Source of the DNA: Takakia lepidozioides | Lineage: Eukaryota > Plantae > Bryophyta | Length of the DNA stretch: 64,000 bases | Direction: 5' to 3' | Assembly (NCBI GenBank): GCA_030704615.1 | Contig: CM060733.1 | Span: forward strand, 51,646,001 to 51,710,000 | Shown here: one piece after another, positions 1 to 23,048 of the stretch | How positions within the stretch are numbered: the first letter of the stretch is position 1 | Layout: each line of letters starts with the position of its first letter | Made by a program: the position numbers and the translations under genes | Notes under the pieces: generated by a model | Database searches by the model: none | What the model was told of the DNA's origin: nothing | What the model saw: only the letters and a program-made list of their open reading frames with translations

Positions 1-557
1 TCCATGTCCCCCCAGAGCCAGATCCAGGCTGCCCGCCTGATCCCCCTGAGCCGACACCTTCGTTGGCCTGTGATCCAAGTGCTCCACTTGATCCAGGTCC
101 AACGGGTTGGGATGTCCTGGTTGTAGTCTCAACCTCAGCTGTTGGGTCTACTTCTTCATACTCTTCGTCTTCCAATTTCTTCTTTTTGTTTTCATCCTCC
201 AAAGTCTGCTCTTGGGTTTCTTCTTCACTCATGTAACTCAACTGCAATGGTGTTGGAGAGTCTGAACTCTTCGTTGGCTCTGCCACATCCTCTCCTCCTT
301 CTCCGTCTTCCGTCTCAGAAATTGGAGATCTTGCTTTTGATGTTCAATGCCAACTCTTATCAAAGATTTCTGTCAAATCTTTTATCCAGGGATGTACCTC
401 AGATCTTTCACCTCGTGGTTGATCTTCTTCCTGTACAAATTCCCTTAATCTTTCTTGCAAAGAAAAAGAATGAGTGACATCCAACTCTAGTTCTTCCTGT
501 ATGGGTGATGTACTCTCTGATCTTAATACCAGGGTCGAGCATATGCAATGTAGTATT
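1..557 (-). pseudogene. Acidic, Gly/Ser-rich ORF running off the left edge; unknown (possibly gag N-terminus-like)
   Basis: Manual translation SESTSPIQEELEL...SWH*TSKARSP...EDENKKKKLEDEEYEE...GSGGSGGQPGSGSGG; one TGA (344-346) in ~185 codons. Confidence 0.5.
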
Positions 558-659
558 TACAATGGGACTTTATTTATTACATGCACGATCAAAATTGAGT
601 TATGTCTTCATAAAAGAACCATTGTACCGCCAGAAATTTCATATCTACGAGACTATGGT

Positions 660-1630
660 CTACTCCGTCCTATATACGTCTTTCGGCTTAGGCCAATTGA
701 ATGGCTTGCCCATGAACCAAAGTACTACATGGGTTAATGTGATTATCTCATTCTTGTTGTTGTCGTACAACCTTCGTAGCATTGAATGCCAACAACCTCC
801 CGTAAATTGGTCCTGGAACATACTTTGATCATAATGAGCGCCGCCATTTATTCGTACCGCTATCTTCCCAACGGCAAAGGCCTCCGACGTCATGTCTGGG
901 GGGGGGGGCGTGGTATTCGCATTGAAAACCGATGCAATATCTTTTTCCACCCACCATCTTTTCGCGAGTTCCCGATCCAGCTTATCTTGGTTTTCAAACT
1001 GGTATGGCGAGGCTTTGCGTATGCCCAATGGGGTGGCTAAGCTCCAATCACACACCCCAATCTTGATCTCATCGTTGTCATCTGGAAAATGCAACAAGAT
1101 GTTGTCGGGGGACAAGTCGTTGTGCATGACACTGTTCTTGTGGAAAGTATCCATGATGCACACCAGTGCCCATGCAAGTTTACTGCGCACTTTCCGGAAA
1201 CGAAGCAAATGATCGCATTCTTGGAACTCTGCTTCCGTTCCCCTTTGTTCTAAAATCACCCTGCTGTCCGAATCGTTGTCCCATTTTCTGTCAAGGTTCA
1301 TCATGTCGCGTATTGTCCCCCCATTCCACCAGCGAGTGTAACCCTCTATCTCACGTGCATTCATAGCAAATACGAGATAACACCCGGATGCTGGAACTTC
1401 ACTGCCAAACACTCGGCGTTATGTTGTCTCAACGCCTTTTCTGGATTTTTGGACTTGGGTTTTTTTCCCGCTAGCTCCCAACGCTCCGGTATTCTAGAAT
1501 CGCCAACAATCCTATAGTGACGGACCTTAGCATACCCTCCTTCTTTGTAAGGGCCAATCTCTACCACCTTTGCACTAGAGTCCAAGTAATAAAGACCAGT
1601 TGTGCCTCCCCCGCCCGATGACCCCGCCAT
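660..1630 (-). pseudogene. Protein kinase domain, intronless, one frameshift near 1375, inside the retrotransposon
   Basis: ORFs 1361-1762 and 660-1412 join to give kinase motifs in order: EGGYAKV, LAGKK, HNAE, HPGVI, WWNGG, HNDLSPDNILL, VCDWSLA, SEAFAVG. Likely ATG at 1630. Confidence 0.85.
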
Positions 1631-1656
1631 CCAAGGGACAACCCTAGTCCGGCGAT

Positions 1657-4600
1657 GTGAATTCTGACTTGCCGGGCAAGCCCAATACTCAACATGCCAC
1701 ATTAACTCAGGTTCGGCGGAGGGCACTCGACCCTCAAATGTTCTACCCTTCCATGTCTTCACATCGGCAGTATATGATTCAATTCCTTCAGAACTTTGAG
1801 CCTCGGACTGGAGTTACTCAGGTGAGGGGAGTAGATATAGAAATTACTCCACAGTACCTACAGCAATTGTTTGATTTGTCATCAGGTCATGTGGATGTGG
1901 ATGAGCACAGGGCAAGATTGCAGATAGGGAATTTGTTCCAAGAAGGGAGAGTCTTTTTGACTCAAGGTTACGCTTGTACCAAAGCCGAGTACCCAGGGTT
2001 CAGAGAAGTTGGCCAAATATTGAACGTTCTGTTTGCCATGAATCAGAACCAACAGTATTTGAGCAGGTCATTCACAGAGGAGATCCTGAAAGCTTTGAGG
2101 GGAGAGGATGTAGCTTGGGCGGAGTTAATGTACAATGGTCTGGTGGATGAGATGAAGAGGTTACAGGGCACTGCTGCTAAGTCTCCGATCATTGTGTCTG
2201 GTCCAGGCATTGCCCAAATCATTCTGGATTCTTGCATACTTGATACTCGGGAACGTAAGGAGATGGGAGTGTTTGAGGCAGAAATCACTGCAATTGAAGA
2301 GCAGGGCTCTTCACATAGTGAGGGTGGACTGGGAGGGCAACAACAGTCTAAGAGACAAAAGCGGGGTATGACTATAGTAGCCAATCCAGTGGCTTCACGG
2401 AAACCGCAAGATAATGTTTCCCAAGCTCTTGTGCAGGATGGGGCACAGCAGCACATAGAGCTGTTATTATTGGAAGCACGGCCCTCGGAGAGGGAAGAGG
2501 AAGTCACTTCGATACCACAGCCACCACAACCAATTGACTCAGTTGTTTTAGAGGTTCCATAGTTAGTACATGCTGTGACATCACCCCCAATTGCTCTGGA
2601 AGGAGAAAGGCTTGGACATTCCCACTACAGAGCAGGTCGTGGCCGAAATTGAGAAGGGTGACCTTCTCTATGAAAACTCTGGCTTGGTAAGGGAATCAGT
2701 GATTCTAGAGGTGCAGCGGTTGTCGAGGGAAAACCCTGCTGTGCATGTAATACCCACACCTGTGACGGAGATACCAGGGGTAGAATATCAGGACACTGCA
2801 GCACCTGTGGAGGATGAGGTGGTTCAGGAAGAGAATCTGGTGGGGCAATGGCCTGAATGGTTGGTGAGGCATCACACTGTGGATGATCAGGGAGAACAAC
2901 AGCAAGTTCACCATGATGACCCTCAGCAGGCCATGTTATGAGTTCCATAAGCAGAACACTTAATTTGTTGGGCACTTATGTGAAATCCCATGTTCCATCT
3001 ACCCAATTGGCAGCTTTGAGGGAGGAACTCAGGAAGGAGTTTGAGGCTCGAATTGCCACTGAATGTGCTAACAAGGTGGATGAGGAGGTCAATCTCAAGT
3101 TACAGCAAGAGTTGGAGGACACAAAGGCTGCTTTGCAGTTGGCCAAGGGACATTTGATTGAAGCAAGCCTCGAGCAGGACCAGTTGCATGAAGCACATAA
3201 GCAACAGTTATACCAAATGCAGGTGAAGCATGATGGCAAGTTGCAAGAAGTGAATGTACTACATACAGAGTTGCAGGCAGTACATTAGAAGATGACCATA
3301 CAATGTGCTACACTCACAACTACTCTTGAGCAAACTGCATTAGAAGTTAACAGACAAGGGGAAAGATGTATGAAGGCAGAAGCAGAGATGATAGAGCAAG
3401 CGAAACTCATTGTTGATATGAAGAATACAATCTGTCGCAATGAGAATATTTTCAAACAATACAGACAAGTTGAGGCTGACCAGGGGAGGTACATCCTGGA
3501 GTTGCAACAAACAGTCATGGTCAATAGAAATGAACTCTTTGTGGCTAACAAGGCTTGGAAGGAAGCCAATAATCTGGCTGCTGCCTATGCGAGTTTGGTT
3601 GAACCTCATGCGAAGCGCATGGAGGCTTTACAGCAGCAGTTAGATGTGTACAGACTCACGAAGGAGCAGACTCTCAGGGGTGCCACACACGACTTGGTGG
3701 ATAATCACCTTATGCAGGTCTGGTTAGCACAAGGGCCGGTGGAAGGCAAAGCACCACGGAAGTTCACCCAGGGCGAGATGAATGAGCTCAGACTGCAGGT
3801 GCAGAACATTGCCACAAATACTATAGACAATGTCTATAGTAGGATAGCGGAGCTATAGGAGGATGTAGAAGGCCTGCAGACTCAGGTGGATGACCTGAGT
3901 TCAAATATTGACAAGAGAGTCTTTGTACCTGAGGAGTAGCTGATGACTACTTATTTACATGCCAGGACTCTAATTTTTCAGTCTTCTTTGCAAGGGGTGC
4001 AGGAGATGCCAGTGGTAGAAGGGCCAGTGGTACCAATACCACAACAAGTGACTGTGCAGGTAGCTGACCCTATTGTTACTACAGCCACACCATAGCCTGA
4101 GGTATGGGGGGATGCTGCTTTTAACCCACCTAAGACTCCTGCTGCACGGGAGTACAGTCGGGCTATGATTATGTCCTTCAACCAAATTCCCATTGTGTTG
4201 GATTTGGCTTGGAAGGAATTTCGTCCTCCGCAGTCGTTGGCACATTACTACCAGATCATGTGCATTTGGCTACCAGTGGCAACTAGGACTAAGGTTCTTC
4301 CGAACAATCAACGCATTGAGGATCATCACTTTGCGAGGTACTGGTCTGAAATAGGTACCATGTTGAAGGAATTAATTGCCTTCCAAGTTGTACATGGGTA
4401 CATTTATACCAAGACCAAGGAGGTATCAAGTATTGTCATGGGTTGTGGATTATACTATGCTGCATGTTTTTTGGCACGTTATCACATTGAGCAGCAGAGG
4501 ATGCAATCCCGATTTCTGAGTTATTCCAGTGGGGATCATTGGGTCTTACCTTCAGTGCCACCTCATATGTACCTATATGATGCAAAAGTTATGATGCAAA

Positions 4601-5007
4601 AGGATTCCCAACTTCGTTCATGGTTTCATTCGGCTTGGAACAATTTGACAACACAGAAATTTGGCCCTGAGGATATTTTCTTTAAGGGACATGAGGCATG
4701 GAAATACTTACACTGTTCCAAAGTCATTGGCACACCTCTTACCTATACAGATAAGGAGTTGAGGACGTTCACTAATTTTGCTTGCCAGCGCTTACAACAA
4801 GTTATACAATTTAAACTTCCAGATATGGTCGGACCACATTGTATGCCACACAGGATTCCACTTAAAGTTCGGCCGTTAAAACACTTAAGGGGAGACGAGG
4901 ATTCTGATACTACTGTTTCTTCAGCGGACTCTTTTGACATGGCAGAGGACTATGCACGTCAGATGGCAGAGAAGAAACGACGGGGATCTTACCTCGTTAT
5001 CAGCTAA
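1657..5007 (+). pseudogene. Long retrotransposon accessory ORF (~1100 codons reconstructed): env-like/plant-transposon-protein-like N-terminus, coiled-coil middle, aromatic-rich C-terminal domain
   Basis: ORFs at 1657, 2938, 3292 and 4165 share one frame broken by TAG at 2560, 3286, 3856, 3937, 4093; ~2600-2935 is shifted by compensating frameshifts. YP...FLQNF...VRGVDIEITP...LFDL and VAWAELM resemble Athila/Tat extra-ORF domains. Confidence 0.7.
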
Positions 5008-5171
5008 AGGAGGGTCAGACATTTCCAGGTAGTGCTCAATTATCTCCGTCAACCAGTGACAGGACTCGGGCTCCCACACGGAGTCCTTCACGAGCCTCTC
5101 ACCGTCAGAAGGGTGCTCGCTCACAAAGGTTTGCTAATCCCAAACAGTAAACCGTGAGGACACGGTTTTTT

Positions 5172-5189
5172 GAGAGGGGGAAGGGTAAA
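5172..5189 (+). other. Polypurine tract
   Basis: GAGAGGGGGAAGGGTAAA immediately before TGTTAG. Confidence 0.75.
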
Positions 5190-6028
5190 TGTTAGAGGGT
5201 TGCTTGGGACTTAGACGCTTTTACGGGTTCTGTGGGGTACCCTTAATTTTTGCGCAGACTGAGACCAACAGGAGCCTTAGGGGTGGCAGCAGCAGGCTTT
5301 AGGGGGGTTATACAGCCCGACACAGCTTCACACAGCCAGTCACAGCCGCCACAGCTTCGCACAGTCCGACACAGCCTGACATAGCCAGTCACAGCCCGAC
5401 ACAGCTCGACACAGCTTTACACAGCCAGTCACAGCCCGCCACAGCTTCGCACAACCCGACACAGCCAGTCATAGCCCGACACAGCTTCGCACAGCCAGTC
5501 ACTGCCCGACACAACTTTACACAACCAGTCACAGCTTGGCACAGCTTGACACAGCCTGTCACAATACATGGGGAACAGTTATCATTGATAGGGAACGACT
5601 ATGAGGGAACGACATCTGCAGAGAGAACGTGTTACTTCAGGGATGACGGTTAGTTAGTTAGGTAGTTAGAACAGCTTGCGGGCAGATAAGGAGAGCGGCA
5701 ACGGAAAGAGGATCACTCGAGAGGAAGCGCTTCTTGGTCATGGAGAAGAGGAGATCAGGCAGAGAGCAAGAACGAGAGCACAGAGAAGGAGGAAAGATAA
5801 ACAGTAGATGCTTATATATGCAAAGCTGTAATGAAACTGTAGGGCAGATTAGAGTCACCATGGCATTGGTCTGATACCTGATAAATCATAATCTGATACT
5901 TATTCGATACAATCACACTATGTAGAGAGACATGAGTGAAGCTGTGAAATGAATGCATGATTAACTGGAACTAAGTAGATACTGAAGAAATCTAATGCTT
6001 CAGTATCAGATAAGGTAATTTGATAACA
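5190..6028 (+). repeat. 3' LTR (839 bp)
   Basis: TGTTA...TAACA inverted termini, follows PPT, TATATA at ~5813. Partner LTR not in window. Confidence 0.7.
5312..5561. repeat. 10-bp tandem array inside the LTR (~25 units)
   Basis: Units ACAGCCCGAC, ACAGCTTCGC, ACAGCCAGTC read directly. Confidence 0.9.
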
Positions 6029-6727
6029 TGAAGGCAAGAAGGAATACAAATGGGAAGCACAACCATGATTCACTAGCTGTAGGTCATGACCGATAGTTCT
6101 GAGCGGGCTGAGTGCTTAGAGATAGCCAACTCTTCTATCTTGGAGTTTCCACCTCGGTTAGCGAAGGGATGGGTGAGTAAAAGCCGTTCGACAGCGACTT
6201 ACCGTGCTTGCAAGGTTGGTGGGAGAAGCTTTTTTGGCATGGAGGGCGACACCGAACTATTCAAGAGTGTCCTCCTCCCTCTTGTGTCTGGCTCTACGTC
6301 TGGCACATAGACCGAAAAAGTTCAAATCAGAAATGATGAGGATACCGAGGATAAGCAGATCGACAACGACTTCTCATGTGAGTAAGTCGGCCATGGAAAT
6401 GTCATTCCAGTTTGGGTGCTTGTTCAATTTTGCATACATCAAAATTGCAGTAATAACTTTTCTCATGCTTTGACTTGCAGGAACGACAGCGATGGATCTT
6501 CAGGAGAAACCCCCATTTGTGCTAAGACTGTTTTCGACAGTCCCCTTTCCACTTTTGTGCTTCCTGTCTATGCCGAAGCAATGGCACTTGAAATGGCCGA
6601 GGCTCTATCCCCTGACTTCTTATTGCCCGATCGTAGGAGTAGCCATCGTAGATCCGGAGTTCTGAAATTCTTGGACTTGGATGCAGTGGACGCGGGGATA
6701 CATTGTACCGACTCTGGATCAGACTGA
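6029..6727 (+). pseudogene. 3' end of a decayed spliced gene, probably transposon-borne, interrupted by the LTR element
   Basis: One frame with TAG interruptions, GT..AG intron ~6378-6480, last exon ending ...LDLDAVDAGIHCTDSGSD*. Product not recognised. Confidence 0.4.
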
Positions 6728-7274
6728 ACTTGGCATTTATTTTGTTCAATTTATATCCTATTCGGAACTCATTGAATTCCCTTGCCTCATTGCATTTGTT
6801 CCGGCAGAAAAAAAGGTGATTCAAACAATCTACTCGGATTCAAATGTCAATCTTCATGAATCCATCCCCTCAACCCCTCACACTCATGTCATATCCATTG
6901 TGCATTCATCTATTGTGTATTCATGCATCCTCCATTCAAGAATGTTTTCCACCATTCAACATCCATCCCACATTCATCCATTCGCTTGCATTGTTCCCAC
7001 ATATCCATATATTTCTCATCCACTCTACATTCATCCATCTTGCATTCAATTGTTGCTTTCAGGTGGGGATGACCACGTCCTTTTATTATTTCGTCGAACT
7101 TGTTTCCACGGTTGAGGGTGCTCTTCCGCGGAAATACAGTCTGCTTCTTAATTGGCGCGCGTTGACGTGGCTTTTAAGCTCGATGACGTGGAGTGAGCCC
7201 GGTGACGTGGCGTTCGTTCAAGGTGATGTGGCGTGAGCGCGGCTGCGCTCACGCGCTCACGCCGAGGCATCCCT

Positions 7275-7740
7275 GCAGCAAGCCTGATGCAAAAGGGGAC
7301 TTCGACAATATGGCTGAACGAGATGTGGTGTTTTGGAATGCCATGATTGCAAGGTATGTGCAGCATGGGTATGGGATTAAGGCTTTGGAAACCTAAGAGC
7401 AAATGATGTGGGAAGGGATGAAGTCATTTGTGTTTATAATAAGCATATGCGAGCTTAGCAGCCCTGGGAATGGTCAAAGAGGTTCATGGTGACATTATCA
7501 AAGTTGGAATTGTACCAGATGTCATTCTGAACATTCCCCTGGTGTACATCTATGCTCACCAAGTGTTCAATAGAATCCCTCAACGATCTTTGATCATGTG
7601 GAATATAATGTTGGCAGGATTTACCAAGCATGGGTTGGTAGGAATGCTTTGGAGACTATGAGCAAATGCTACACAAAGGGTTGAAGCCCAACCGCATCAC
7701 ATTTGTTTGTGTTTGCAATGCGTGTGCAAGCCTGGGAGCG
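7275..7740 (+). pseudogene. PLS-class PPR gene fragment
   Basis: FDNMAERDVVFWNAMIARYVQHG, EVHGDIIKVGIVPDV, WNIMLAGFTKHG, KPNRITFVCVCNACASL; stops and frameshifts. Confidence 0.9.
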
Positions 7741-7751
7741 TTCTGTTGTAG

Positions 7752-8539
7752 TGAATATTTTTCTGACCCCAGTCAACGGTGGGACAATCAAGGCAAAAAG
7801 GTGAATTCATGTTGGATTACAGAGAATAGAAGATGCAATTGAGCATATGAACTAGTGTGATAAGTTGACTTGGGTGTTTCCTAGAACAATTTGAGGCTTT
7901 CATTATCAGTTGCTAGCAGCAAGGCAAGGGTGAATGCATGATTTTGGCAGAGGCATGGATAGCTGAAGGAGCAGGGATAGAGTGTAGGTCCAGATTCATC
8001 GAAGAGGGCCGGACTTCAAGCTCCTATTATTCCCTGTAGCCAATAGCTACTAGCAACCTGCATGGATAGATGGTCAATTGGAAGCTGCAGCAGTAGCGGT
8101 GGAATTGATAAATCAGGCACTACTAATGAAGGCACCTTCTTCAACACATTTCACCCTGTTTTTCCTTCTTATCCTGCATGCTAGCTGGTTGACTGAACCT
8201 TTGATAGTTTGGAGTGACTTGACATGATATTGCCAATGTGACAACAGGAAAGTATCCAGAAACAAGTAACAGAGATGAGGAGAAGCTGTGGAATGAATAT
8301 TTTTCTTACCCAATCAATGGTGGGACAATCAAGAAAGAAGGTGAATGTCTTTTTGATTATAGAGAGTAGCAGATGCAATTGAGCATATGAACTAGTGTGA
8401 TAAGTTGAGTTGGGTGTTTCCTAGAATCAATCTAGGCTGTCATCGTCAGCTGCTAGTAGCAAGGCAAGGATGTATGCATAGGCATGGATAGCTGAAGGAG
8501 CAAGGATAGAGTGTGGGTCCAGATTCATCCAAGAGGGCC
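7752..8539. repeat. Diverged direct repeat, 7752-8030 and 8294-8539
   Basis: Shared AGATGCAATTGAGCATATGAACTAGTGTGATAAGTTGA and GGCATGGATAGCTGAAGGAGCA. Confidence 0.9.
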
Positions 8540-8940
8540 AGAAAGAGGTCCATGGTGACATCGTCAAAGCTGGAATTGTACCGGATGTGATTCTGAACAC
8601 TGCCCTGGTGACATGTATGCCAAATGTGGGTGCATTAAGGATGCAAAGGGAGTTTTCAACACTATGGCTAAACGAGATGTGTGTCATGGAACGCGATGCT
8701 TGCAGGGTATGCACAGCAGGCCGGACGTGGTATGGAGGCTTTGGAGACCTATGATCAAATGATGGGGGAAGGGGTGAAGCCTGACCACATCACATTTTTG
8801 TGCATTTGCGATGCATGTGCAAGCCTGACAGCTCTGGAAAGGGCACAAAAGTCCATGGCAACATTGTCAGAGCTGGAATTTTACCAAATGTCATTCTGAA
8901 CAATACCCTTGTGGACATGTACATGCAAAATGTGGGTGCA
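8540..8940 (+). pseudogene. Second PLS-class PPR gene fragment
   Basis: KEVHGDIVKAGIVPDVILNTALV, SWNAMLAGYAQ, VKPDHITFLCICDACASL, NNTLVDMY; frameshifted. Confidence 0.9.
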
Positions 8941-9349
8941 CCCTATCCTGCTGATTTGTTGTTATGCTGGAACAGTAGCAAACGTAGAAAGACATACGCA
9001 TTTTACATCTGTTGCTATATTCAGTGCATATGTAGTCTCCTTTGCACTTTGTCATACTATTGTTTGAGAAGTAGATTTTGGGACTCAGGTGCTATATTGT
9101 AAATTTGACTGGCAGCAGTTTAAGAGAAGCTCTTACATCTACTGTTGTCTTTAAGTGCCTATGTTTTGTCCTTTGCACTTGCTGACTTTGTTCTTTCCTG
9201 TGATTCTTGCTTGTGAATAAAGCATTCATTTGCAGAGTCATTTTTTGTGTCTTTGTTCTTCCATTTGTTCTTCTCTTTGTTTAATATTGAATAATACTAA
9301 CCCTAATCTCTACTAACCCTAATGAGATAAACATAGTTGTGGCTCTGCA

Positions 9350-10316: not shown

Positions 10317-10694
10317 TCTGCAACAATCGGAGCAACACTAAACAAGGTTTTCTAAAAAGATGTAACTCTAAACCCTTCCCTCGTTAAGTAGGTTTGAGTA
10401 GGTGTCAAAATAGTTCCTAAAAGCTAATTTTGTAGAATAAAATAATTCTGGAAGCCAGAGGAGGGCCTATGGGAGCATTCTGCAACGACCTCACAGAAAT
10501 CGCGGCAAAAAATACCCCCCACCCAACCAATGGCCTCCTTCTCCACGTGACTACGTGTTGTGGAATAATGAAATGCCACGCGCACAAAAGTTGTGTGGAG
10601 AGGAAGTGAGGGGAGAATAAGCCTCCATTGGCTTATATCTCTCTCTCTCCCCCCCTCTTCATTCCTCGGGCCACGTGTAGCGCGAATCTTCTAG

Positions 10695-12580
10695 AAGCGA
10701 CCGCCAACTTGGCGGTCGCTCCATTTTTCGGAAAATAAAAAAATAAGCGACCGCCAGAACTGGCGGTCGCTCCATTTTCCGGATAAATAAAAAAAACTGC
10801 GATCGCCAGAATTGGCGGTCGCAACATTTTCCGAAAAAAAAAAAAAAAAAAAAAAAAAACCGCTAGAACAGGCGGTCGCTCCATTTTCTGGAAATAAAAT
10901 AAATAAACGACCTCCAACATAGGCGGTCGCTTCATTTTCAAAAAATTTAAAATAAATAAGCAACCGCCAACATAGGCGGTCGCTTTATTTTCAAAAATAT
11001 TAAAATAAAAGCGACCGCCAGCAATGGCGGTCACTTGATTTTCAAAACATTTAAAATAAACTGGCGGTCGCTCCATTTCCAACAACATTTTAATAAAAGC
11101 GACCGCCAGTAGTGGCGGTCGCTGGATTTACAAAAAACAAAACAATTGCGGCGACCGCCCGTAATGGCGGTCGCTCGATTTTCCTCCAAAATATAGAGAA
11201 GCGACCGCCTGTAATGGCGGTCGCTTCATTTTCAAAAACATTTAAATAAAAGCGACCGTCAGTAATGGCGGTCGCTTCATTTTCATTTTCAAAACAATTA
11301 AAATAAATGCGACCGCCACAAATGGCGGTCGTTCCATTTCCAACCAAATTTTTGAAAAAGCGACCGCCATTAATGGCGGTCGCTGCAATTACAAAAAAAA
11401 ACAATACCGGCGACCGCCCCTAATGGTGGTCGCTCCATTTTCTTCCAAGAAACAAAAAAACGGCTGCTAGTAACGGCGGTCGCTTCATTTCCAAAATAAT
11501 TAAAATAAAAGCGACCGCCAGTAATGGCGGTCGCTACATTTCAAAAATAAAAAAATAAAAGCGACCGTCAGTAATGGTGGTCGCTGCATTTAAAAAAATA
11601 ACCATTACAGCGACCTCCAGAAATGACGGTCGCTGCATTTTGTAAAAACAAAAACTGCCAGTATTGGAAGTGAGGGGAGAATGACTGGGGGCTTATATGC
11701 CCCCCCCCCGGCCTCATTCCTCGCTCCACGCGCAGGTCAGACCTCGTACAAGCAACCGCCACCATGGCGGTCGCTCCATTTAAAAACAAAAAAAAACGAC
11801 CGCCACAAATGGCGGTCGCTCCATTTCGCCAGAAAAAGAAAAAAAACGATCGCCAGTAATGGCGGTCACTGCATTTATAAAAACAAAAAAAAACTTCAAG
11901 CGACCGGAAGTGAGGGGAGAATGAGTCGGAGCTTATATGCCCCCCTCCCCCCGCCTCACTCCTTGCTCCATGCGCATGGCACACTTCGTAGAAGCGACCG
12001 CCACCTTGGCGGTCGCTCCATTTTCATTTTCAAAACAATTAAAATAAAAGCGACCGTCATAAATGGCGGTCGCTCCATTTTCATTTTCAAAACAATTAAA
12101 ATAAAAGCGACCGTCATAAATGGCGGTCGCTCCATTTCCAACCAAATTTCAATAAAAGCGACCGCCACTAATGGCGGTCGTTGCAATTACAAAAAACAAC
12201 AATACCGGCGACCGCCCCTAATGGCGGTCGCTCCATTTTGCTCCCAAAAAACAAAAAAGCGACCGCCAGTAACGGCGGTCGCTTAATTTCCAAAATAATT
12301 AAAATAAAAGCGACCGCCATGTATATCCTTCCCCCCCCTCATTCCTCGCTCCACGTGCAGAACAAACCTCATAGAAGCGACCGCCACCTTCGCGGTCGCT
12401 CCATTTAAAAAAAAAAATGGACCGCCAGTAATGACGGTCGCCCCATTTCCAAAAATAAAAAAATGGCGGTCGGGGAGAATGACTGGGAGCTTATTTGCCC
12501 CCCCGCCCCCCCCCTCCTCATTCCTCGCTCCACGCGGAGGGCAGACCTCATAGAAGTGACCGCCACCTTGGCGGTCGCTC
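10695..12580. repeat. Array of ~30 palindromes GCGACCGCC-N5/6-GGCGGTCGC, ~51-bp period, A-rich spacers
   Basis: Counted by eye; a longer GGGGAGAAT...CATTCCTCGCTCCACG block recurs at ~10610, 11670, 11910, 12320, 12470. Confidence 0.95.
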
Positions 12581-12830
12581 TATTTAAATAAAAATGAATG
12601 CACAGTTGGAAGCATGGCACAATTGTTCTCCATTCCACAAGCAAATCACCGAACATGAGCAAGTGACGGTGCCTTTGGCCGACATTTTGGCTGGTATACA
12701 TATGGGCAACATCTTTTATTTTCCAACACATACACAACAGCAATACAAATACTCATAGTGACAATGATCACATTGGTATTATTTCAGTACAGAAATATAA
12801 ACATGTCCACTAAAAAGTGCTGATACATGC

Positions 12831-15770
12831 CTACAGCTTCAATTCCTTGTAATGCTTCGACGGCGGGACGAAGAAGATCTTAATCCTAATGCTCCGATGG
12901 GTTGGAAATCCGGGTCACCCTCGACTTCACCACCGTTGCCATGATCAGTGCTGGAATCGTCTCCCTATCTGACCTCATATGTCCAGGCATTTGAATCTGC
13001 AAGTGACCTCAAACCACATTTAGTTATCTTTGAAGTCGACTCCCACTCCGGTCTTGAATACCATCCATGGTATCTGGCCAGTTTGTGGGCCGATCGCCTA
13101 CAAAAGGTTGGACTGTTCTCTGTCGTTTATGGACTTGGGACGCAATCAAAGGTGGTCTCGAAGGAGGTACCGGAGGGGGGACTGCCCGAGATGGACCGAC
13201 ATGTGAGGAACCACGGGTCTGCTGCACAACACGTCGGTTAAGGTGGAATTGTAGTGGCAGGTTGTTATCATCCGAGGCTTCAACTTCCGCCCGGTCCAAT
13301 GCAGCAGAATGATGCATGTGTGTGGAAAACATATCAACCATGTTGCTCCTTAATGCCCACTATGTTGATGGGGAGCTGGATTGGTTTTGGCATTGTTCTT
13401 GAGCTAGTCGTATCGGTGAGACATGATCCCGTCCCGTCGACTATTTAATGGGTTCGACACCATCGTTTGTATGAACAGGGTTGCGTACGTCGATCGGTCC
13501 TGGCAGTACATCACCCCTAAGCTCCATTGGGGCACTACCGGTGGCTTCAGCGTGTAGTGGGGGGCGATGGTCGACCCCAACTTCATTTTGAGGACCATGT
13601 TCTGGGGATGACACAATTGCAGCTTCACCTTCATCTGCGATACGCATTTCTTCAAGAAGGTCATCAAAGGTCGGCTGGATATAAGCATCATCCTCTATGA
13701 ATGTAAACGGGTCATACGCATTTTCGGGAACATCATCGGATCCATCTTCACTATCGGAGGCAGATGATTCCCTTTGAGATGATTCTCTATGAGGCTCAGT
13801 ATCGTCACTCATCGAATCAGCCTCAGAAGCAGAGTCTTCGGAATGCAAATTCCTTTCATACCATGCTGCAGCATCATCCGTTGCCCTCTCACGTAGCAGT
13901 CGGCAATTGGTATACACATATACCAATTTGTCAGTCCTCGCGGGATTCAACTTGTTGCGAATCTTGTTACGAACAAATGATTAATTGCTCCAATTGCGTT
14001 TGCAAGATGAGGCGGAGCACACTTGAGCAAGAATACGCTTCGCAATGGGAGCCAATGTTCTTGCTCTAGCTCCAATCAGATCCCACCATTCATGTGGCAA
14101 CATATTGAGCTCTTTTGGATCCGGCATGTCCTCAAAAGGGTCGCGGCGATCAGCGTCGTCATCAGCGTCGTCTCGGAGCATGGTGTTGTCGAACAAGAAT
14201 GGATTGAGCAAAGCCCCCGCATAATGCAAGTCCGTTCGAACCATCGAACGACGGTTGTAAAATGCATCATCAGCACTGTCCGCAAGTTCAGATTCCAAGG
14301 AGAAGGGAGGATGCCTCAATGATTGGACGTGCTTCTCAAGATTTTGCATTAGTAACCATGCCTTGCCCATTACTGGTTGCTTTCCATCAAACTCCCGCAA
14401 GACGATTAACACCGGCTCTACCATATAAACAAAGTTTTCACATTTCTTCCAGAAATCATCGTTGCGAGTGCTATTTCGAACTTTTCGACTTTTGCCCAAT
14501 GACTTGGCTTTTCTGGAGTCCCACAATGTCCGTGTGTACGCATCCCATTGAGGATCGATGATGGTGTGCTCCAGACTGCTCTTCACCGTCACCAACCGAT
14601 CCACCATCAAGAAGTTAGTGACAAAACGAGTTTCGCCTGGATTGCGGAGGCTGCATTTGGGTTTGTGCCTCCTATATGTTGCCAAAGGGATGTGGTGTGT
14701 GCGGATAAACGACACAATAGTCTTCGCTCGCTTGACAAGTTGTTTCACCCACTGTTCTTTTCCCCAATCTTTCAAAAGGAGGTCAAGGATATGAGCAGCA
14801 CAACCTCGATAGTACATATGGGGATAACGTGCCAACAACATGTCTGCAATGTTTCTCATGTTAGCGGCATTGTCTGTGTATATTTGCACGATTCTATCAT
14901 TTCCGACCTGTTCGATGAAGTCCGTCAATAGTTGGCATTAATAACGTCCATCTCTCTTCTCGCCGCTAGTGTCGACCGATCCCAAGAATTGTTCCCCAAT
15001 TGGACATACGAGCATGACATTGAATAACGGTCTGTTTCAGAACTCCAACCATCGGCACATATAGTGCTTCCATATTTTCTGATGCACTCGTCCGTCCTAT
15101 CGTTGACCTTTTGAGTAAGCTCGGTCATGACGTCTTCTAGCAATCCTGTGCGGAGATTGTGATAAGTCGGAGGCACGTACGTGGATCTGGACTCCGAGGT
15201 TGCTCTTACGGCAGAAACAAATGTTGGAAGCCTTGCCATATTAAATGATATGTTGGCCTTGAAGAAAAACTGCGCCCATTTTTTATCCAACTGTCTTTTC
15301 GCAGACAAGTTAAGACTTTCTTGCATGGATTGCTGCCGTAATCCTCTACTCCGTTGAAGTGTAGAGATAGAAAGAGGTATTGAAGCAGGTGTTGCTCCGG
15401 CACAACCCACTTGTCCAAGGACACCCGAAGCCTCACAAGAGTCGCCCTGGGTACTAATCGGGGCATCCTGACGGGAAGATGAAGTGTTCTGCTCAGACGT
15501 CATGTCCAGATCCAAAGACATTGGAATATTGCCTCCACACTGGGCAAAGTGGTTTTTTACCCGCATAGATGTTTTGGGGCATAAACCCACCCCAGTGCTC
15601 TTCACACCTTTATAGCCGAGGTGAGCGATTAACTGATCCTTACGATAAGAAAGGTTTAATCCATATAGGTTGCACTCAACACTACCAGTGACACTGACAG
15701 TGTTCGGGATTGCCGTATACCAAGGGCTTCATTCCTCTATCATCTTCACCCAATATCCACTCCCCTGGGA
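12831..15770 (-). pseudogene. hAT transposase (BED-like finger, DUF659, hAT dimerisation domain)
   Basis: TICADGWS, IVQIYTDNAANM, CAAHILDLLLKDWG, ETRF, LAPIAKRILAQVCSASSCKRNWS, DKLVYVYTN; frameshifts, stops and a low-complexity C-terminal tail. Confidence 0.9.
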
Positions 15771-16176
15771 CCTAGCGATGCAAGCAACAAAAAATAGTCA
15801 CCTATAAATGAACGTGTTGTGAATGTACAGTGCAATGCGATAGCCTAATACTTCTACACTTGTCAGCAACCCAAGTAGGTCGATGTGGGTTGTAGTGTTG
15901 AGCTTATACACAATCTGCTGAAATGACTTTGGTGGAAGCCACAACGGCAAAAAGTGCGCACCCTCCTCTTGGGCTACACTTTCGTTCAATGGAAGAGAAC
16001 ATCCAAAGCAACCTCAAGTGTTTGCACCAAAAGAAGTGATGAGCTTGGTGACCCTCCTGCCTTATATATGATCCAAGAGGGATGAAAGTGAAATGAAAGT
16101 GAAATGAATAAATGACGAACCAATAGCGCCCACCCGAAAAAGGCTGTACAACCATATTTGTTGTAATTTTGAAATT

Positions 16177-17195
16177 AAGCGACCGCTAATACTACGGTCG
16201 TTATTTTTATTTTTTATGAAAAACAAGCGACCGCCACTACTGTGGTCGCTTTTATTTCTTTTCATTTTGTGCAATATTGCGGTCACTTCTATTTTGTATA
16301 TTTTTAAATTTAAGCGACCGCCCGTATGGCGGTCGCTATTGTTTTTTATTTCAAAATATAATGCGACTGCCGGTATGGCGGTCGCTTCATTTGTTAATAT
16401 ATTTCAAATAAAGCGACCGCCAATATGGTGGTCGCTTTTATTTTTAATATTTTTAAAAAAACGCGACCGCTAGTAAGGCGGTCGCTTTTAATCTTTATAT
16501 TTTCAAGTTTAAGCGACCTCCAGGCTGGCGGTCGCTCAAACTTAATATATATTTTAAAATTGACACGACCGCCGGTTTGGTGGTCGCAAATATTGTATTG
16601 TTTTAAAACAAGCGACCACTGGTGTGGCGGTCGCTTTTATTTTCATATGTCGCTTGTTTTTTTATATAATTTTAAATTTACCGACCGCCATATGGCAGTC
16701 GTTTGTTTTTCTATATATTTTTTAAATTAAGCGACCGCCCAATGGCGGTCGCTGCTTTTTTCTTAAAAATATTTTTGAAATTATCCGACCGCCATATGGC
16801 GGTCGCTTGTTCTGTACATATTTACAAAATTGTGCGACCACCAATACGGCAGTCGTTTGTTTCCTTTTTTAAATTAGGCGACCGCCAATGCGACCTCCAA
16901 TCTTGTTTTTTCTTAAAAATAAATTGAAGCAACCGCCAAGATAGCGGTCGCTATTTCTTTTTTTAATTCGAAAAATAAAGCGACCGCCAGTGCGACCGTC
17001 AATCTTGCTTTTTTTTTAAAACAATTTGAAGCGACCGCCGCTATTTCTTTTTTTATTTCGAAAAATAAAGCGACCGCCAGTGCGACCGCCAATCTTGCTT
17101 TAAAATAATATAATTGAAGCGATCGCCAATACGGCGGTTGCTATTTCTTTTTTAATTTTGAAAAACAAAGCGACCGCCATAATTGGCGGTCGTGT
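16177..17195. repeat. Second array of ~20 GCGACCGCC/GGCGGTCGC palindromes, ~50-bp period
   Basis: Same motif as 10695-12580, upstream of the transposase. Confidence 0.95.
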
Positions 17196-17386
17196 TCATT
17201 TTGTTAATTTTCAAAAATGTATTTGCCACCGCCACCGTGTCGGCGACGTGATTGCTTAAGTAACAATATTTTACCTGGTACTATTTTTACCAGAATATTC
17301 CCCGAACCTGACGTGACGGTGGTCCCGTCATCGTCAGGTCTGACGTGATGTGACGCTGACGGACGGACGTGACGCTGATAACTGGG

Positions 17387-19434
17387 ATTTGGACGACATT
17401 TTGATATTTTCACAGAATGAAGAAGAACATGGCCGTCATGCTGAAACAGGCATTTACAACGGCTCCAATACTGGTACATGCAGACCCATCTAAACTATTC
17501 TTCTTGAAAGTAGATGCATCGGACTTTGCACTTGACACTCTACTCTCTCAATATGGTACAGATGGCCGACTTCATCTTGTTGGTTCTCGTTCTCGCAAAT
17601 TTTCCGCTGCAGAGATCAATTATGAAATCTATGACAAAGAACTTATAGCGATCATCGATGCTTTTGAGGAGTGGCGTCATCTACTGGAGGGAGCTAAACA
17701 TCAAGTCACTGTCTACACCGATCACAAAAACCTCGAATATTTTATGAGTGCTCGTGTTTTGAATCGACGTCAAGCTAGATGGGGTATGTCACTAACAAGG
17801 TTTAATTTTGTTATAACCTATCGCTCCAGACATCTTCAAGAGAAACCCGATGCTATTTCTCGACGATCGTATCTTGCGCCGAAAAAAAAGGAGACAACTT
17901 TCGACCAGCAGAAATTCATAATCTTGAAATCAGCAAATCTCCAATTGAATATGCTATCTATGTCTACCTATGACGATGCAGAGATTATAAAAGAGATTCA
18001 GGAAGCACTGAAGAGCAACCAATTTGCTACGACACTACGAAGTCAACTAAATCGATCTCGAGACAACCCACATGTTACAAACGACTTCGAATGCAAAGAT
18101 GACTTATTTTATTTCAAGGGACTTCTCTATGTACCTCCTACGCGGTTTCGAATTCTTCAAACATGTCATGATTCTCCGGCTGCAGGACATTTCGGCTTCA
18201 ACAAAACAATGGAATTGATATCTAGGGACTATTGGTGGCCGCAGATGTGGAAACTCGTGAAAGAATTTATAAAATCTTGTGACATGTGTGCTAGAGCGTT
18301 CAGGGACCACGACATCGACCTTACGGCCTTCTTCAACCATTACCCATTCCCAAGGGTCCATGATCGTCCGTGTCTATGGACTTTATTACGGACTTCCGAT
18401 TTCCAAGACCACCGATTCAATCCTTGTTATTGTAGATCGTTTTACGAAGATGACACATTTCATTCCATATAATAAGACGGTTACCGGCGAGGAAACTGCA
18501 AGACTCTTCCTCAATAATATCTATCGTATTCATGGACTCCCGAAGGATATCGTATCTGATCAAGGACCACAGTTTGTATCAAATTTCTGGAAGGGATTAT
18601 TTCACATATTGGATATTAAGATTAACCTCTCTACAGCTAATCATCCACAGACTGATGGTCGAGCCGAACGTGTAAACCAGATTTTGGAATGGTATCTTCG
18701 CTGTACGATAAATTATCACCAAGATAATTGGACGGACCTTCTGTCATTAGCTGAGTTTGCCTACAACAACACTATACATTCTTCGACCAAACAAACTCCA
18801 TTTTTCTCCAATTATGGTCATCATCCTCGAGCAAACCCTTTCCACATGAAGACTGTTGGAAGTCTTGTTGTAGAAAACCTTGCTACTCATCTTGCTACGA
18901 TTCACAAGGAGCTTACATTCTACCTCACAGAAGCTCAAAAAACAATACAAGGAGTATGCAGATCAACATCGCCAACTCCAACCTCAGTTCAAGGTCGGAG
19001 ATCATGTGTGGCTTCTTCGACGGGACATACAAACCTCGCGTCCATCAAGGAAGTTGGATTATCAACGTCTGGGACCATTCAAAATTATTCGACAAATAAA
19101 TCCGGTCAGTTTTCGGCTTGAACTCCCACGAAGTATGCGCATCTATCTAGTCTTTCATGTTTTATTATTGGAGTTGTATCATCCATCGAATATTCCAGGG
19201 AGAGTCTCCGTACCACCTCTACCAATCGAAGTCAATCAGAAAATTGAGTATGAAGTCGACGAAGTCCTCGATTCTCGCATCAAGTATAAACGTCTTGAGT
19301 ATTTCGTACATTGGAAAGGCTACAACATCAGCGAACAAACGTGTGAACCTTCATCCAACCTCGCCAATGCATCTGACAAAGTCCAAGAGTTTCATCAACG
19401 ATATCCAGCTAAGCCCCGAGCTACACATCAATAA
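17387..19434 (+). pseudogene. pol remnant: RT LDD fragment, RNase H, integrase, chromodomain
   Basis: [33 protein letters not shown]...CDMC, SDQGPQF, HPQTDGRAERVN, LGPFKI, YEVDEVLDSR..YFVHWKGY; frameshifts and an RT deletion near 17440. Confidence 0.95.
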
Positions 19435-20339: not shown

Positions 20340-23048
20340 CTTTACTGATGGAAAAGACATTTCTCCAACTTGGCATATAATCCTCTTTCTCTTAATTTAT
20401 CAAGGACAAGGCGTGCCTATGCCATGTTCTTCTTCATTCTGTGAAAATATCAAAATGTCGTCCAAATAGATGACTACAAAATCATCTAAAAATTCTCGAA
20501 AGATGTCATTCATCATATGTTGGAAAATTGCTGGATCATTTGTAAGACCGAAAGACATAACACTGTATTCAAAATATCAATACCTTGTTCGAAAAGTTAT
20601 TTTCCATTCGTCTCCTTATTTTATCTGTACAAGGTTATAAGCTCATCTCAAGTCAATTTTGGTGAAAATCATCGCTCGTCCCAGCTGGTCGAGAAGTCCA
20701 GAAATCAGCGGCAACGGATAACGATTCTTAATTGTGACTTTGTTGAGACCGCGATAGTCTACACACATGCGTAATGATCCGTCCTTCTTTTTCACAAACA
20801 AGATATGCGCCCCCGTAGGTGATTTTGAATGTCGGATGAAGTGCTTCGACAAATTTTCATCAATGTAGTCACGTAATGCAGCCAACTCCGTCTGGGATAA
20901 GTTATAGATTGGGCCGAATGGTGGTTGGGCTCCTTCTTGTAACTCAATTGCACAGTCATAAGGTCGATGTTTTAGCAATATGTCTGCATTTTTCTTCTCG
21001 AAGACATCTTTGAAATCTTGATATTGAGCAGGTAATGTTGAAGTATCTTTATCTGTTGTGGTCTTGATCGGAGTCGCATAAAGTGCAAATGCCGCATCCT
21101 TTTTAGTAGCTCTCATGAAAGCTCTAGCTCCAAGGAATAGAGGTTGAATACCTTTGATATTTCTACATTTTTGTCTTGCAGAAATTTCTCGCGATCACGA
21201 GTCAATGTCAGGATTGTGAAGTACGAACCAGGGAAGTCCAAGGATCACAAGATTCGTTGGAGACTGGATGACGTTGAATATGTGATACTTGATCTTTAAG
21301 CTTCACTTCAAGTGGTCGAGTTTCATGGTCTACATTTCCTGATGCTAACGGTCGTCTATCGATGACTTCAACGGGGGCTCTTCTTTACGAGTGTTAAATT
21401 GTGTTATTTCGCAAAGTTTTTGTCCATAAAACAAGTTGAAGCGCCTAAGTCCAAAAATACTTCTACAGAGATATCTCGATTTTGCACTTTGATTTTTACC
21501 GGAACTGTGAAGCAAGGTACGGGGTCTGGAGGTAGAAAGAGACATTTTTTCGGTGAAGAATTTATGGTGTCCAGCCGCATGGTCCCTACTGTGACTGGAC
21601 ATCTTCGTTTTCCGACCTCCTCGTATCGAACACTTGAGTTGTGCCTCGAGCTTTGAATCTTCTCTTGTTGGAGCAGTTTAATGCTAAGTGATCTTCTTCT
21701 CCGTAATAGAGGTATAACCCATTGGAGCGCCGTCTTTTCTTGTGGCGTCAATGGCTTGAATCGGACAGCATCAATCTGCATAGGATCACTACCGGATGTT
21801 TGATGGATCGTTGTGTTTGGTGCCATAGTAGCAGTGATATAATGCGTCGTCGACCATCCAGATCGCTTCTTTTGACGTCTTTCGAACAAACGATTATCGC
21901 ATGCAATGACTTGGGTGATGAATTCACTCAGTGTGCTCACGTTTGACATTGTCAGCAACAAATCTTTAACATCATCTTTTAGCCCACATCAAAACTGACT
22001 AATGAGGCTCTTCTCCTTCCAATCGAGGTCGCATGCAAGTTGTCAAAATTCGGCAGCATAAATGGAAGCATGACGTGCTTCTTGTCGAAGATTTCGCATT
22101 TTTGTCTCTGCAACTCCCTCTCTATCATTCTCTCCAAACGTTGAAGTGAACTCGGATATGAATGCTTCAAAATTATTTAGTAAATACGATTTTTTTTTTA
22201 ATAGCGGTGCAAACCAAGATAGGGCAGTGCCTGATAAAAGGGTGCCCACGAATCCCACTTGAATACCTTCATCGGGGTAGCGTTGTGGATGTAGTCATAG
22301 GAACAATCATACTTGTTGAACAAAACTACGAAATCTTGATATCGTCCCATCAAATTTCTCGGGCATGCTGATATTTGGTTCTCTCGTAATCTGTTGAAGA
22401 TGAACCGTTGCAGTAGGAGCTGTTGCAGTAGGGACTCGTATGGTTGAAGATCCATTATTCGACTCCTTTAACTCTAAAATTTATTGTTGCAAATTGTGGA
22501 GAGCGTTGCCAAGATCTTGAGACTGATCAGCTTGCAATTGGGCGGTAGAGGTACAAAGTTCTTGCATCTAAAGTTGAAGACTTTGCAATGTGGCGACCAT
22601 TTCCACAAATATACATTCCATCTTAACTAACTAAGGAACAAACCTTAGTCTCGCCAAACTGTCAAGGACGAGAACATGACTGAACATAAACAAAAGATCA
22701 GACTAGAGATACAAGACTAGATAAGAAGTCAAGGTCGGCGTGGCCGAATGCATGATGAGTAAATAAGAATCAAGACGATCTTTATAACAATGAACAAGAG
22801 TACAAGATATTGGAACACGACTTAAATACTGGAATGTTGGAAACTAGACTAGAGTACTAGATACTGGAAATTGGGCTAGAGCACTGGGAATTGGAAACAA
22901 GAATAGCTTGAACTAGTGTTGGCGATACTGAAGAGTATCCAGTCTCCTCCTATATATACTGGCTACTAAGAAGCTTTCCCTATAGAGGTTTCTTGATGGA
23001 GAAGTTTCCTTAAACAAAAGAGGTATCTTGATGGAGAAGTTTCCTCCA
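20340..23048 (-). mobile_element. Same chromovirus family, 5' half: partial 5' LTR, PBS, gag, protease, RT
   Basis: LTR 22660-~23048 matches 20230-20335 in reverse and ends GTCCTTGACA; gag LLSGTALSWF, DPMQIDA; protease FLDLGAST; [32 protein letters not shown]. Confidence 0.92.
22647..22659 (-). other. Self-priming primer-binding site
   Basis: TTGGCGAGACT after the LTR is complementary to AGTCTCGCCAA (20323-20333), ~20 nt after the LTR TATA. Confidence 0.8.

Follow-up and report, generated by a model that had tools for sequence, protein, structure and literature searches.

An antisense kinase fragment in a Takakia LTR retrotransposon is probably a one-off capture from a kinase-carrying mobile element

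In a 64,000-nucleotide stretch of the Takakia lepidozioides genome (the whole of which is called the window here), a protein kinase is encoded antisense inside an LTR retrotransposon. Is this kinase a standing gene of the retrotransposon family, or did it come to this copy from elsewhere? The original prediction had favoured the former, a family-level accessory enzyme that may phosphorylate element proteins or host silencing factors.

We observed that contigs from public sequencing runs pile up on positions 1–6193 and that the depth drops beyond 6193. On the plus strand, the sequence shows a polypurine tract at 5172–5189, which is followed by a 3′ LTR of 1,004 bp (5190–6193; TG..CA) delimited from both the sequence and the contig ends and having a 10-bp tandem array at approximately 5312–5573. 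Behind 6193, other copies carry a primer-site-like sequence, TGGCG.., present in the loose ends (30 letters each) of 43 contigs of run X2. The plus strand is therefore the sense strand of the element and the kinase is antisense to it, so that the predicted arrangement of the kinase, polypurine tract and LTR was recovered. The primer site may be that of tRNA-Arg, as in Tat-like elements. The element is a high-copy LTR retrotransposon having only its 3′ part inside the window; its 5′ LTR, gag and pol were not seen within the window, as the 5′ part lies outside.

Two other ORFs of the element flank the kinase. An acidic, low-complexity antisense ORF (1–527, minus strand; stop at 344–346), recognized from the ORFs and the loose ends, runs off the window and has its head cut at 527. 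On the other side, ORFs and contigs define a sense extra ORF region (1762–5007, plus strand), which is partly coiled-coil-like, has its head cut at 1762 and is interrupted by stops and shifts. Several of these stops and shifts are absent from the other copies, and the sequences suggest that the LTR family has one long extra ORF, possibly of more than 1,000 codons and partly coiled-coil. We found no family or homologue for the region 1762–5007, neither a homologue nor an atlas match for its part 4096–5004, and no match to this part or to the other element ORFs in the kinase-bearing metagenome loci described below.

The kinase itself is a 5′-truncated pseudogene (660–1761, minus strand), as judged from its frames, Pfam, the alignment to relatives and its continuation in the contigs of other copies. 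It consists of two overlapping, intronless minus-strand frames, 1361–1813 and 660–1418, and a single frameshift near 1367 joins its N- and C-terminal parts; both halves align co-linearly with single intact relatives. All the predicted motifs were found in these frames: EGGYAKV at 1523–1543, LAGKK at 1460–1474, HNDLSPDN at 1101–1124 and DWS at 1041–1049. The β3 Lys, the αC Glu, the catalytic Asp and Asn and the Mg-binding Asp are all five legible in this copy. The C-terminal frame matches Pkinase with an E-value of 9.7e-06, below Pfam's cut-off. The predicted extent of the gene, 660–1630, holds for its start at 660; however, homology reaches up to 1761, where the gene is cut with approximately 130 N-terminal codons missing, and the in-frame ATG at 1630 is internal. 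Downstream of the coding part, the region 529–659 (minus strand; GC 0.36) is by its sequence a likely 3′ UTR of the kinase, whose overlapping AATAAA hexamers at 569–578 may serve as the poly(A) signal. The pseudogene is located 3.4 kb upstream of the polypurine tract and the 3′ LTR.

This copy is decaying. The frameshift is absent from 8, 4, 3 and 1 contigs of other copies in the four public runs, and contigs of other copies differ from the window at the third codon of DWS (row 1043). Among 33 listed coding differences between the window and other copies, taken from the 40 best-supported of 204 difference rows, 15, 11 and 7 fall on codon positions 1, 2 and 3, respectively. In an RNA run, contigs were observed on the LTR and the sense ORFs and barely on the kinase, which says nothing about the expression of the kinase.

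We analyzed the borders of the kinase using public-run contigs on positions 300–2200 from four runs (X1, X2, X4 and X5) of two samples. In X1, the summed contig depth was ∼1.1 million at 364–491, 17,000–55,000 over 556–1771 and 125,000–694,000 beyond; the same step was seen in X5, with depths of 400–528, then 19–74 and then 234–1,358. Since copy numbers cannot be read from summed contig depth, we relied on the depth step alone. Loose ends were found behind 527 in 27, 15 and 5 contigs of X1, X2 and X4, respectively, before 529 in 2 and 1 contigs, behind 1761 in 5 contigs (X4), and before 1762 in 12 contigs of X1 and 2 of X5. The depth of 28.7 at 545 in X5 came wholly from two contigs (25.1 and 3.6) that diverge from the window at 529 and 531, and that of 22.1 at 1675–1711 from one contig diverging at 1761. 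Neither junction was bridged by any of the longest 31 contigs, from a total of more than 10,000 pieces among the rest of which bridging contigs may exist. Two loose-end motifs do not recur within the window.

The continuations of these contigs showed what was lost at the borders. Past 1761, the kinase loose end translates in frame as TWNLRQL, matching the W/F-N helix in the N-terminal domain of the family, and the loose ends at 527 and 1762, each translated alone, likewise lengthen the antisense and the sense ORF without a change of frame. Other copies thus have longer versions of all three ORFs, and the near absence of spacers between them, correctly noticed in the original prediction, is an artefact of the breakpoints. 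The insert removes the starts of both the neighbouring divergent ORFs. In the commoner copies, the interval from 527 to 1762 is occupied by other sequence, and the kinase contigs run into different flanks. The kinase stretch is multi-copy, with up to 41 contigs at one site in X1. In X2 and X4, the contigs that bear the kinase have one flank in common before 529, and therefore the donor was a repeat. We had considered the CAGGGT at 530 as a hAT end, which was rejected as the kinase contigs share one flank also beyond it.

Base composition marks the same interval. The observed/expected ratio of CpG is 0.85 in 529–1761 versus 0.34 and 0.33 in the flanks; C is followed by G in 58/337 cases inside the insert and in 65/790 outside (Fisher p = 2.4e-05), and a blind scan over 1–5007 returned 531–1730 as the best interval. 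The junctions share 0–2 nt, with one extra base at 528. The depth step, the loose ends and the CpG content thus delimit a foreign insert of 1.23 kb (528–1761, minus strand), comprising the kinase fragment and its 3′ UTR, between the two divergent ORFs. A separate insertion boundary had been named in the original prediction as a result that would refute it. With such a boundary evident from both the read junctions and the CpG composition, the kinase is not a standing gene of the window's LTR family.

To which kinases does the fragment belong? Profile searches gave 3 matches initially, then 129 proteins, and then 663 clusters at an E-value of 0.001 (73 at 1e-30); facts on individual matches in the 129-protein set come from the 120 that were listed. 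The full-length members are mostly of 490–570 amino acids and are single, intronless ORFs. They have a helical N-terminal domain of approximately 170 amino acids followed by a kinase domain with an insert in the N-lobe, an HND loop and a DWG motif. In the aligned family matches, the catalytic residues are nearly invariant: β3 Lys in 76/76, αC Glu in 75/77, catalytic Asp in 87/93, Asn in 92/92 and Mg-binding Asp in 89/91. DWG is present in 77 of 88 family members, so that the DWS in place of DFG, though rightly read in the window, does not represent the family state. The window protein is 35–40% identical to its best full-length matches.

All eukaryotic members with a species name belong to Ceratodon purpureus, where intact and near-identical kinase copies are annotated as host genes; kinome counts of this moss may therefore be inflated. 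A single 90% cluster has 126 members. The 15 of them that were listed are distributed, by their gene names, over chromosomes 1, 2, 3, 4, 12, U and V and are 92–99% identical. As the Ceratodon members are annotated genes, their intactness is pre-selected. We estimated dN/dS ratios of 0.15 and 0.24 for two of the six deep pairs, the other four being saturated, and of 0.37–0.92 among 10 close intact pairs. The family has thus been under long-term constraint and weak recent selection.

The predicted structure of a relative (P0023; pLDDT 84) has the bilobed eukaryotic protein-kinase fold. With Foldseek, it matched FGFR2 and other kinases (E-value of 2.6e-08; 11–16% identity), and its matches to viral kinases were no better; by sequence, the best solved kinase had an E-value of 7.7e-04. 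The model of the N-terminal domain is all helical (pLDDT 86), with no sequence match in the PDB, no Foldseek match under an E-value of 1 and a best Z of 5.0. We predict that the intact members are active non-RD protein kinases with their own promoter, in which the helical N-terminal domain would act as a docking domain. In viral contigs, none of the 37 pattern matches to the kinase was confirmed, nor were any of the 44 in 185,579 prokaryote genomes. One match (P0019) carries the label 'Bacilli'; its contig of 2.9 kb was probably mis-binned and comes from a plant. A distant profile match of 2,846 amino acids (P0379) was examined as a fusion with a transposon protein; this was rejected, as it comprises four tandem HND-type kinase units with serine-rich and coiled-coil repeats between them.

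The genomic surroundings of the relatives were informative about the carrier. The best 80 of 128 confirmed metagenome matches collapsed into at least 49 independent loci, of which 26 share one downstream (3′) flank. Loci of this 26-member family sit among varied plant genes (WRKY, LOB, pectinesterase), and in 14 of them a shared 15-bp TIR marks the end, 0.67–1.33 kb after the kinase, with unrelated sequence beyond. Two loci have both ends. L044 (2087–11956) is bounded by both TIRs and flanked by an exact 8-bp TSD, and L049 (5968–11735) has both TIRs, a TSD matching at 7/8 positions and a remnant of a DUF659 hAT transposase on the kinase strand; the left ends of the two are homologous. These were the only convincing cases of a TSD with a 5′ TIR among the 13 loci tested, and in a chance control a laxer TSD match occurred in 17 and 10 of 200 trials at these two loci. 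We regarded the TSD-like matches in L047, L051, L059 and L071 as internal motifs or as products of chance. Remnants of hAT transposases were detected in 4/49 loci, all within the 26-locus family. The TIRs, TSD and transposase establish that kinases of this family are the cargo of hAT transposons in another plant, and the hAT-borne copies that we saw are all decayed. Where the carrier could be identified, it is thus a hAT DNA transposon and not an LTR element.

The best loci (L001–L013), which have mostly intact ORFs, lie on contigs of 2–8 kb, too short for naming the carrier. In several loci with intact ORFs, GC-rich tandem repeats and a TATA-like box precede the gene, and in L007 inverted repeat arrays are present on both sides of the kinase. 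In L010 (1–3302), the two contig ends have 128 bp in common, which lie inside a single kinase ORF of at most ∼820 codons. The contig is thus a tandem unit or a circle of 3.17 kb, in which promoter repeats are combined with a kinase whose N-terminus is long and of low complexity; L009, L012 and L013 have the same arrangement. L004 has two genes in one contig, a 364-codon ORF of unknown nature and the kinase (128–1774 and 4821–6729), with the same array of GCCGTCCGATC repeats and a TATA-like box in front of both, and by this sequence arrangement it appears to be a multi-gene cargo cassette. L031 (973–14954) is a 14-kb element in which imperfect inverted repeats of more than 1.7 kb enclose a kinase of a second sub-family.

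Taking these data together, we consider it probable that the locus is a one-off capture of a truncated kinase piece in an LTR copy, a chimera that was dead on arrival or soon after. The source would have been a kinase-carrying mobile element, likely a hAT-type DNA transposon. A 1.23-kb kinase piece would likely have been pasted at the DNA level during break repair into one copy, or a small sub-branch, of the high-copy LTR retrotransposon, where it would have replaced the region holding the starts of the two divergent ORFs. The limited sharing at the junctions, the extra base and the antisense orientation favour such a DNA-level repair capture. The kinase/LTR junction of the window would then be rare, and by analogy with the other plant the donor in the window's own genome may also have been of hAT type. 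Against this reading, a quick tree placed the window kinase as a lone long branch (0.95) outside the hAT-borne clade.

A rather unlikely alternative is that the donor was a second LTR lineage carrying a full-length antisense accessory kinase, and that the window is a template-switch recombinant of the two. The antisense orientation would come naturally from co-packaged genomic RNA, the shared flank before 529 points to a repetitive donor, and putative LTR-like motifs are located 500 bp behind the kinase of L001. Abnormal template switching between unrelated RNAs is also on record in PMC13317346. However, none of the 49 loci has an LTR-like direct-repeat pair (14 loci have more than 4 kb on both sides, and most loci belong to one hAT family). 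A gypsy integrase was found near the kinase in a single locus, L023, in searches with chromovirus-type pol queries of limited sensitivity, and as this locus ends in a hAT TIR, we assigned the integrase to a nested element. The junctions are, moreover, non-homologous, and the CpG depletion differs between the insert and the element.

It is more improbable that a whole kinase-bearing DNA transposon inserted into the LTR copy and that later deletions removed both its ends along with adjoining LTR-element sequence. Nesting and decay of elements are frequent both in the window and in the kinase loci, and hAT carriage is established elsewhere; however, this course needs two independent deletions, each crossing an element end, and the related TIR motif has no match in the window.

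The reading of the original prediction, in which the window's LTR family would have the kinase as a family-level accessory gene translated from the ATG at 1630 and acting on element or host-silencing proteins, is now very improbable. The kinase domain is complete and does have an in-frame ATG before it, the kinase stretch is present in multiple copies, and its location, with the internal region on one side and the 3′ LTR on the other, resembles that of the antisense extra ORFs of Retand elements (PMC11963269). All this is outweighed by the other sequence in the commoner copies, by the different flanks and longer gene of the kinase copies, by the decapitation of both neighbouring ORFs, and by the truncation and decay of the window copy. 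That an ordinary host kinase with introns was recently retrocopied or transduced is hardly credible, for although the insert has no introns and ends approximately 40 bases past an AATAAA, all the full-length relatives are themselves single ORFs, the solved kinases are remote (best E-value of 7.7e-04 by sequence, 11–16% identity by fold), and no named host kinase occurs among the 120 matches listed. The original prediction was right in this last respect, and also in that the lineage is divergent, multi-copy and transposon-associated.

The capture that we favour makes the locus itself one more broken chimera, and the interest lies in the transposon-borne kinase family. The intact relatives apparently form an unnamed family that was amplified in moss genomes. 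By analogy with Kaonashi and VANC, their kinase likely serves the transposon, and selection acting on the transposon would have maintained it. It might, rather tentatively, act on the transposase or on host chromatin or silencing proteins; it is also possible that it is a neutral passenger, or possible that it is a meiotic or cellular toxin. A bolder version appears doubtful to us, namely that the family comprises ancient, bryophyte-associated, active HND/DWG kinases that occur only as transposon accessory genes, and that a promoter–ORF cassette with the full-length gene has moved between hAT and at least one LTR lineage, phosphorylating host silencing or chromatin proteins to promote transposition. 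If this were true, the cassette-borne family would be the kinase counterpart of VANC. With this family, it can be tested directly whether transposons counter host silencing by phosphorylation.

To our knowledge, transposon accessory enzymes are few in plants (Ulp1/Kaonashi, VANC). PMC13317346 places the Ulp1-carrying Kaonashi and the VANC genes in non-TIR MULE/Vandal transposons. The likeness lies in a protein-modifying enzyme domain encoded by a separate, long-kept gene of a plant DNA transposon family; in our case, however, the enzyme is a kinase and not a SUMO protease, the carrier is a hAT and not a MULE, and the system is known from sequence alone. PMC11963269 describes TRP28 antisense extra ORFs of Retand/Tat elements that lie downstream of pol and before the 3′ LTR; position and orientation are thus the same, and so is the setting, an LTR element whose 3′ internal region is long. 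TRP28 is, however, present in 97% of the Retand clusters, whereas the commoner copies of the present element lack the kinase, which has insertion borders, and the accessible text lists no kinase domain among the Retand extra ORFs.

Capture of gene fragments by LTR retrotransposons, with the template-switch chimeras Veju and BARE-2, is also covered in PMC13317346. As in these, a truncated foreign sequence resides inside one branch of an LTR family; unlike them, the piece in the window comes from another mobile cargo gene, is antisense and has blunt junctions. The Crinkler/RHS kinase–REase effectors, for which PMC5289972 gives a transposon origin, are likewise divergent kinases with links to mobile DNA and to genetic conflict; the N-terminal domain of the present family differs in being a helical bundle without a clear counterpart. 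Neither Pfam nor fold searches matched a REase or a CR N-terminal domain, and absence from a match list is not an exclusion. The word 'kinase' is not mentioned in the accessible text of PMC13317346 or PMC13547354. A search of mostly open-access literature returned no description of a transposon-borne kinase family in mosses.

Other mobile elements are present in the same window. A hAT element occupies approximately 10600–17200, in which a DUF659-type transposase remnant (13441–15728, minus strand) lies between long arrays of palindromic GCGACCGCC subterminal repeats; we found neither a kinase inside this element nor a clean TIR/TSD pair. It is followed by a gypsy element (17405–19434, plus strand, and 20643–21988, minus strand) having an integrase and a chromodomain-like tail. 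Its gag–RT half is inverted relative to the RNaseH–integrase half, and short exact inverted repeats are located at 17387/20467 and 20227/23014. A cluster of broken repeats, which we take to be PPR-like, is present at 7187–9102.
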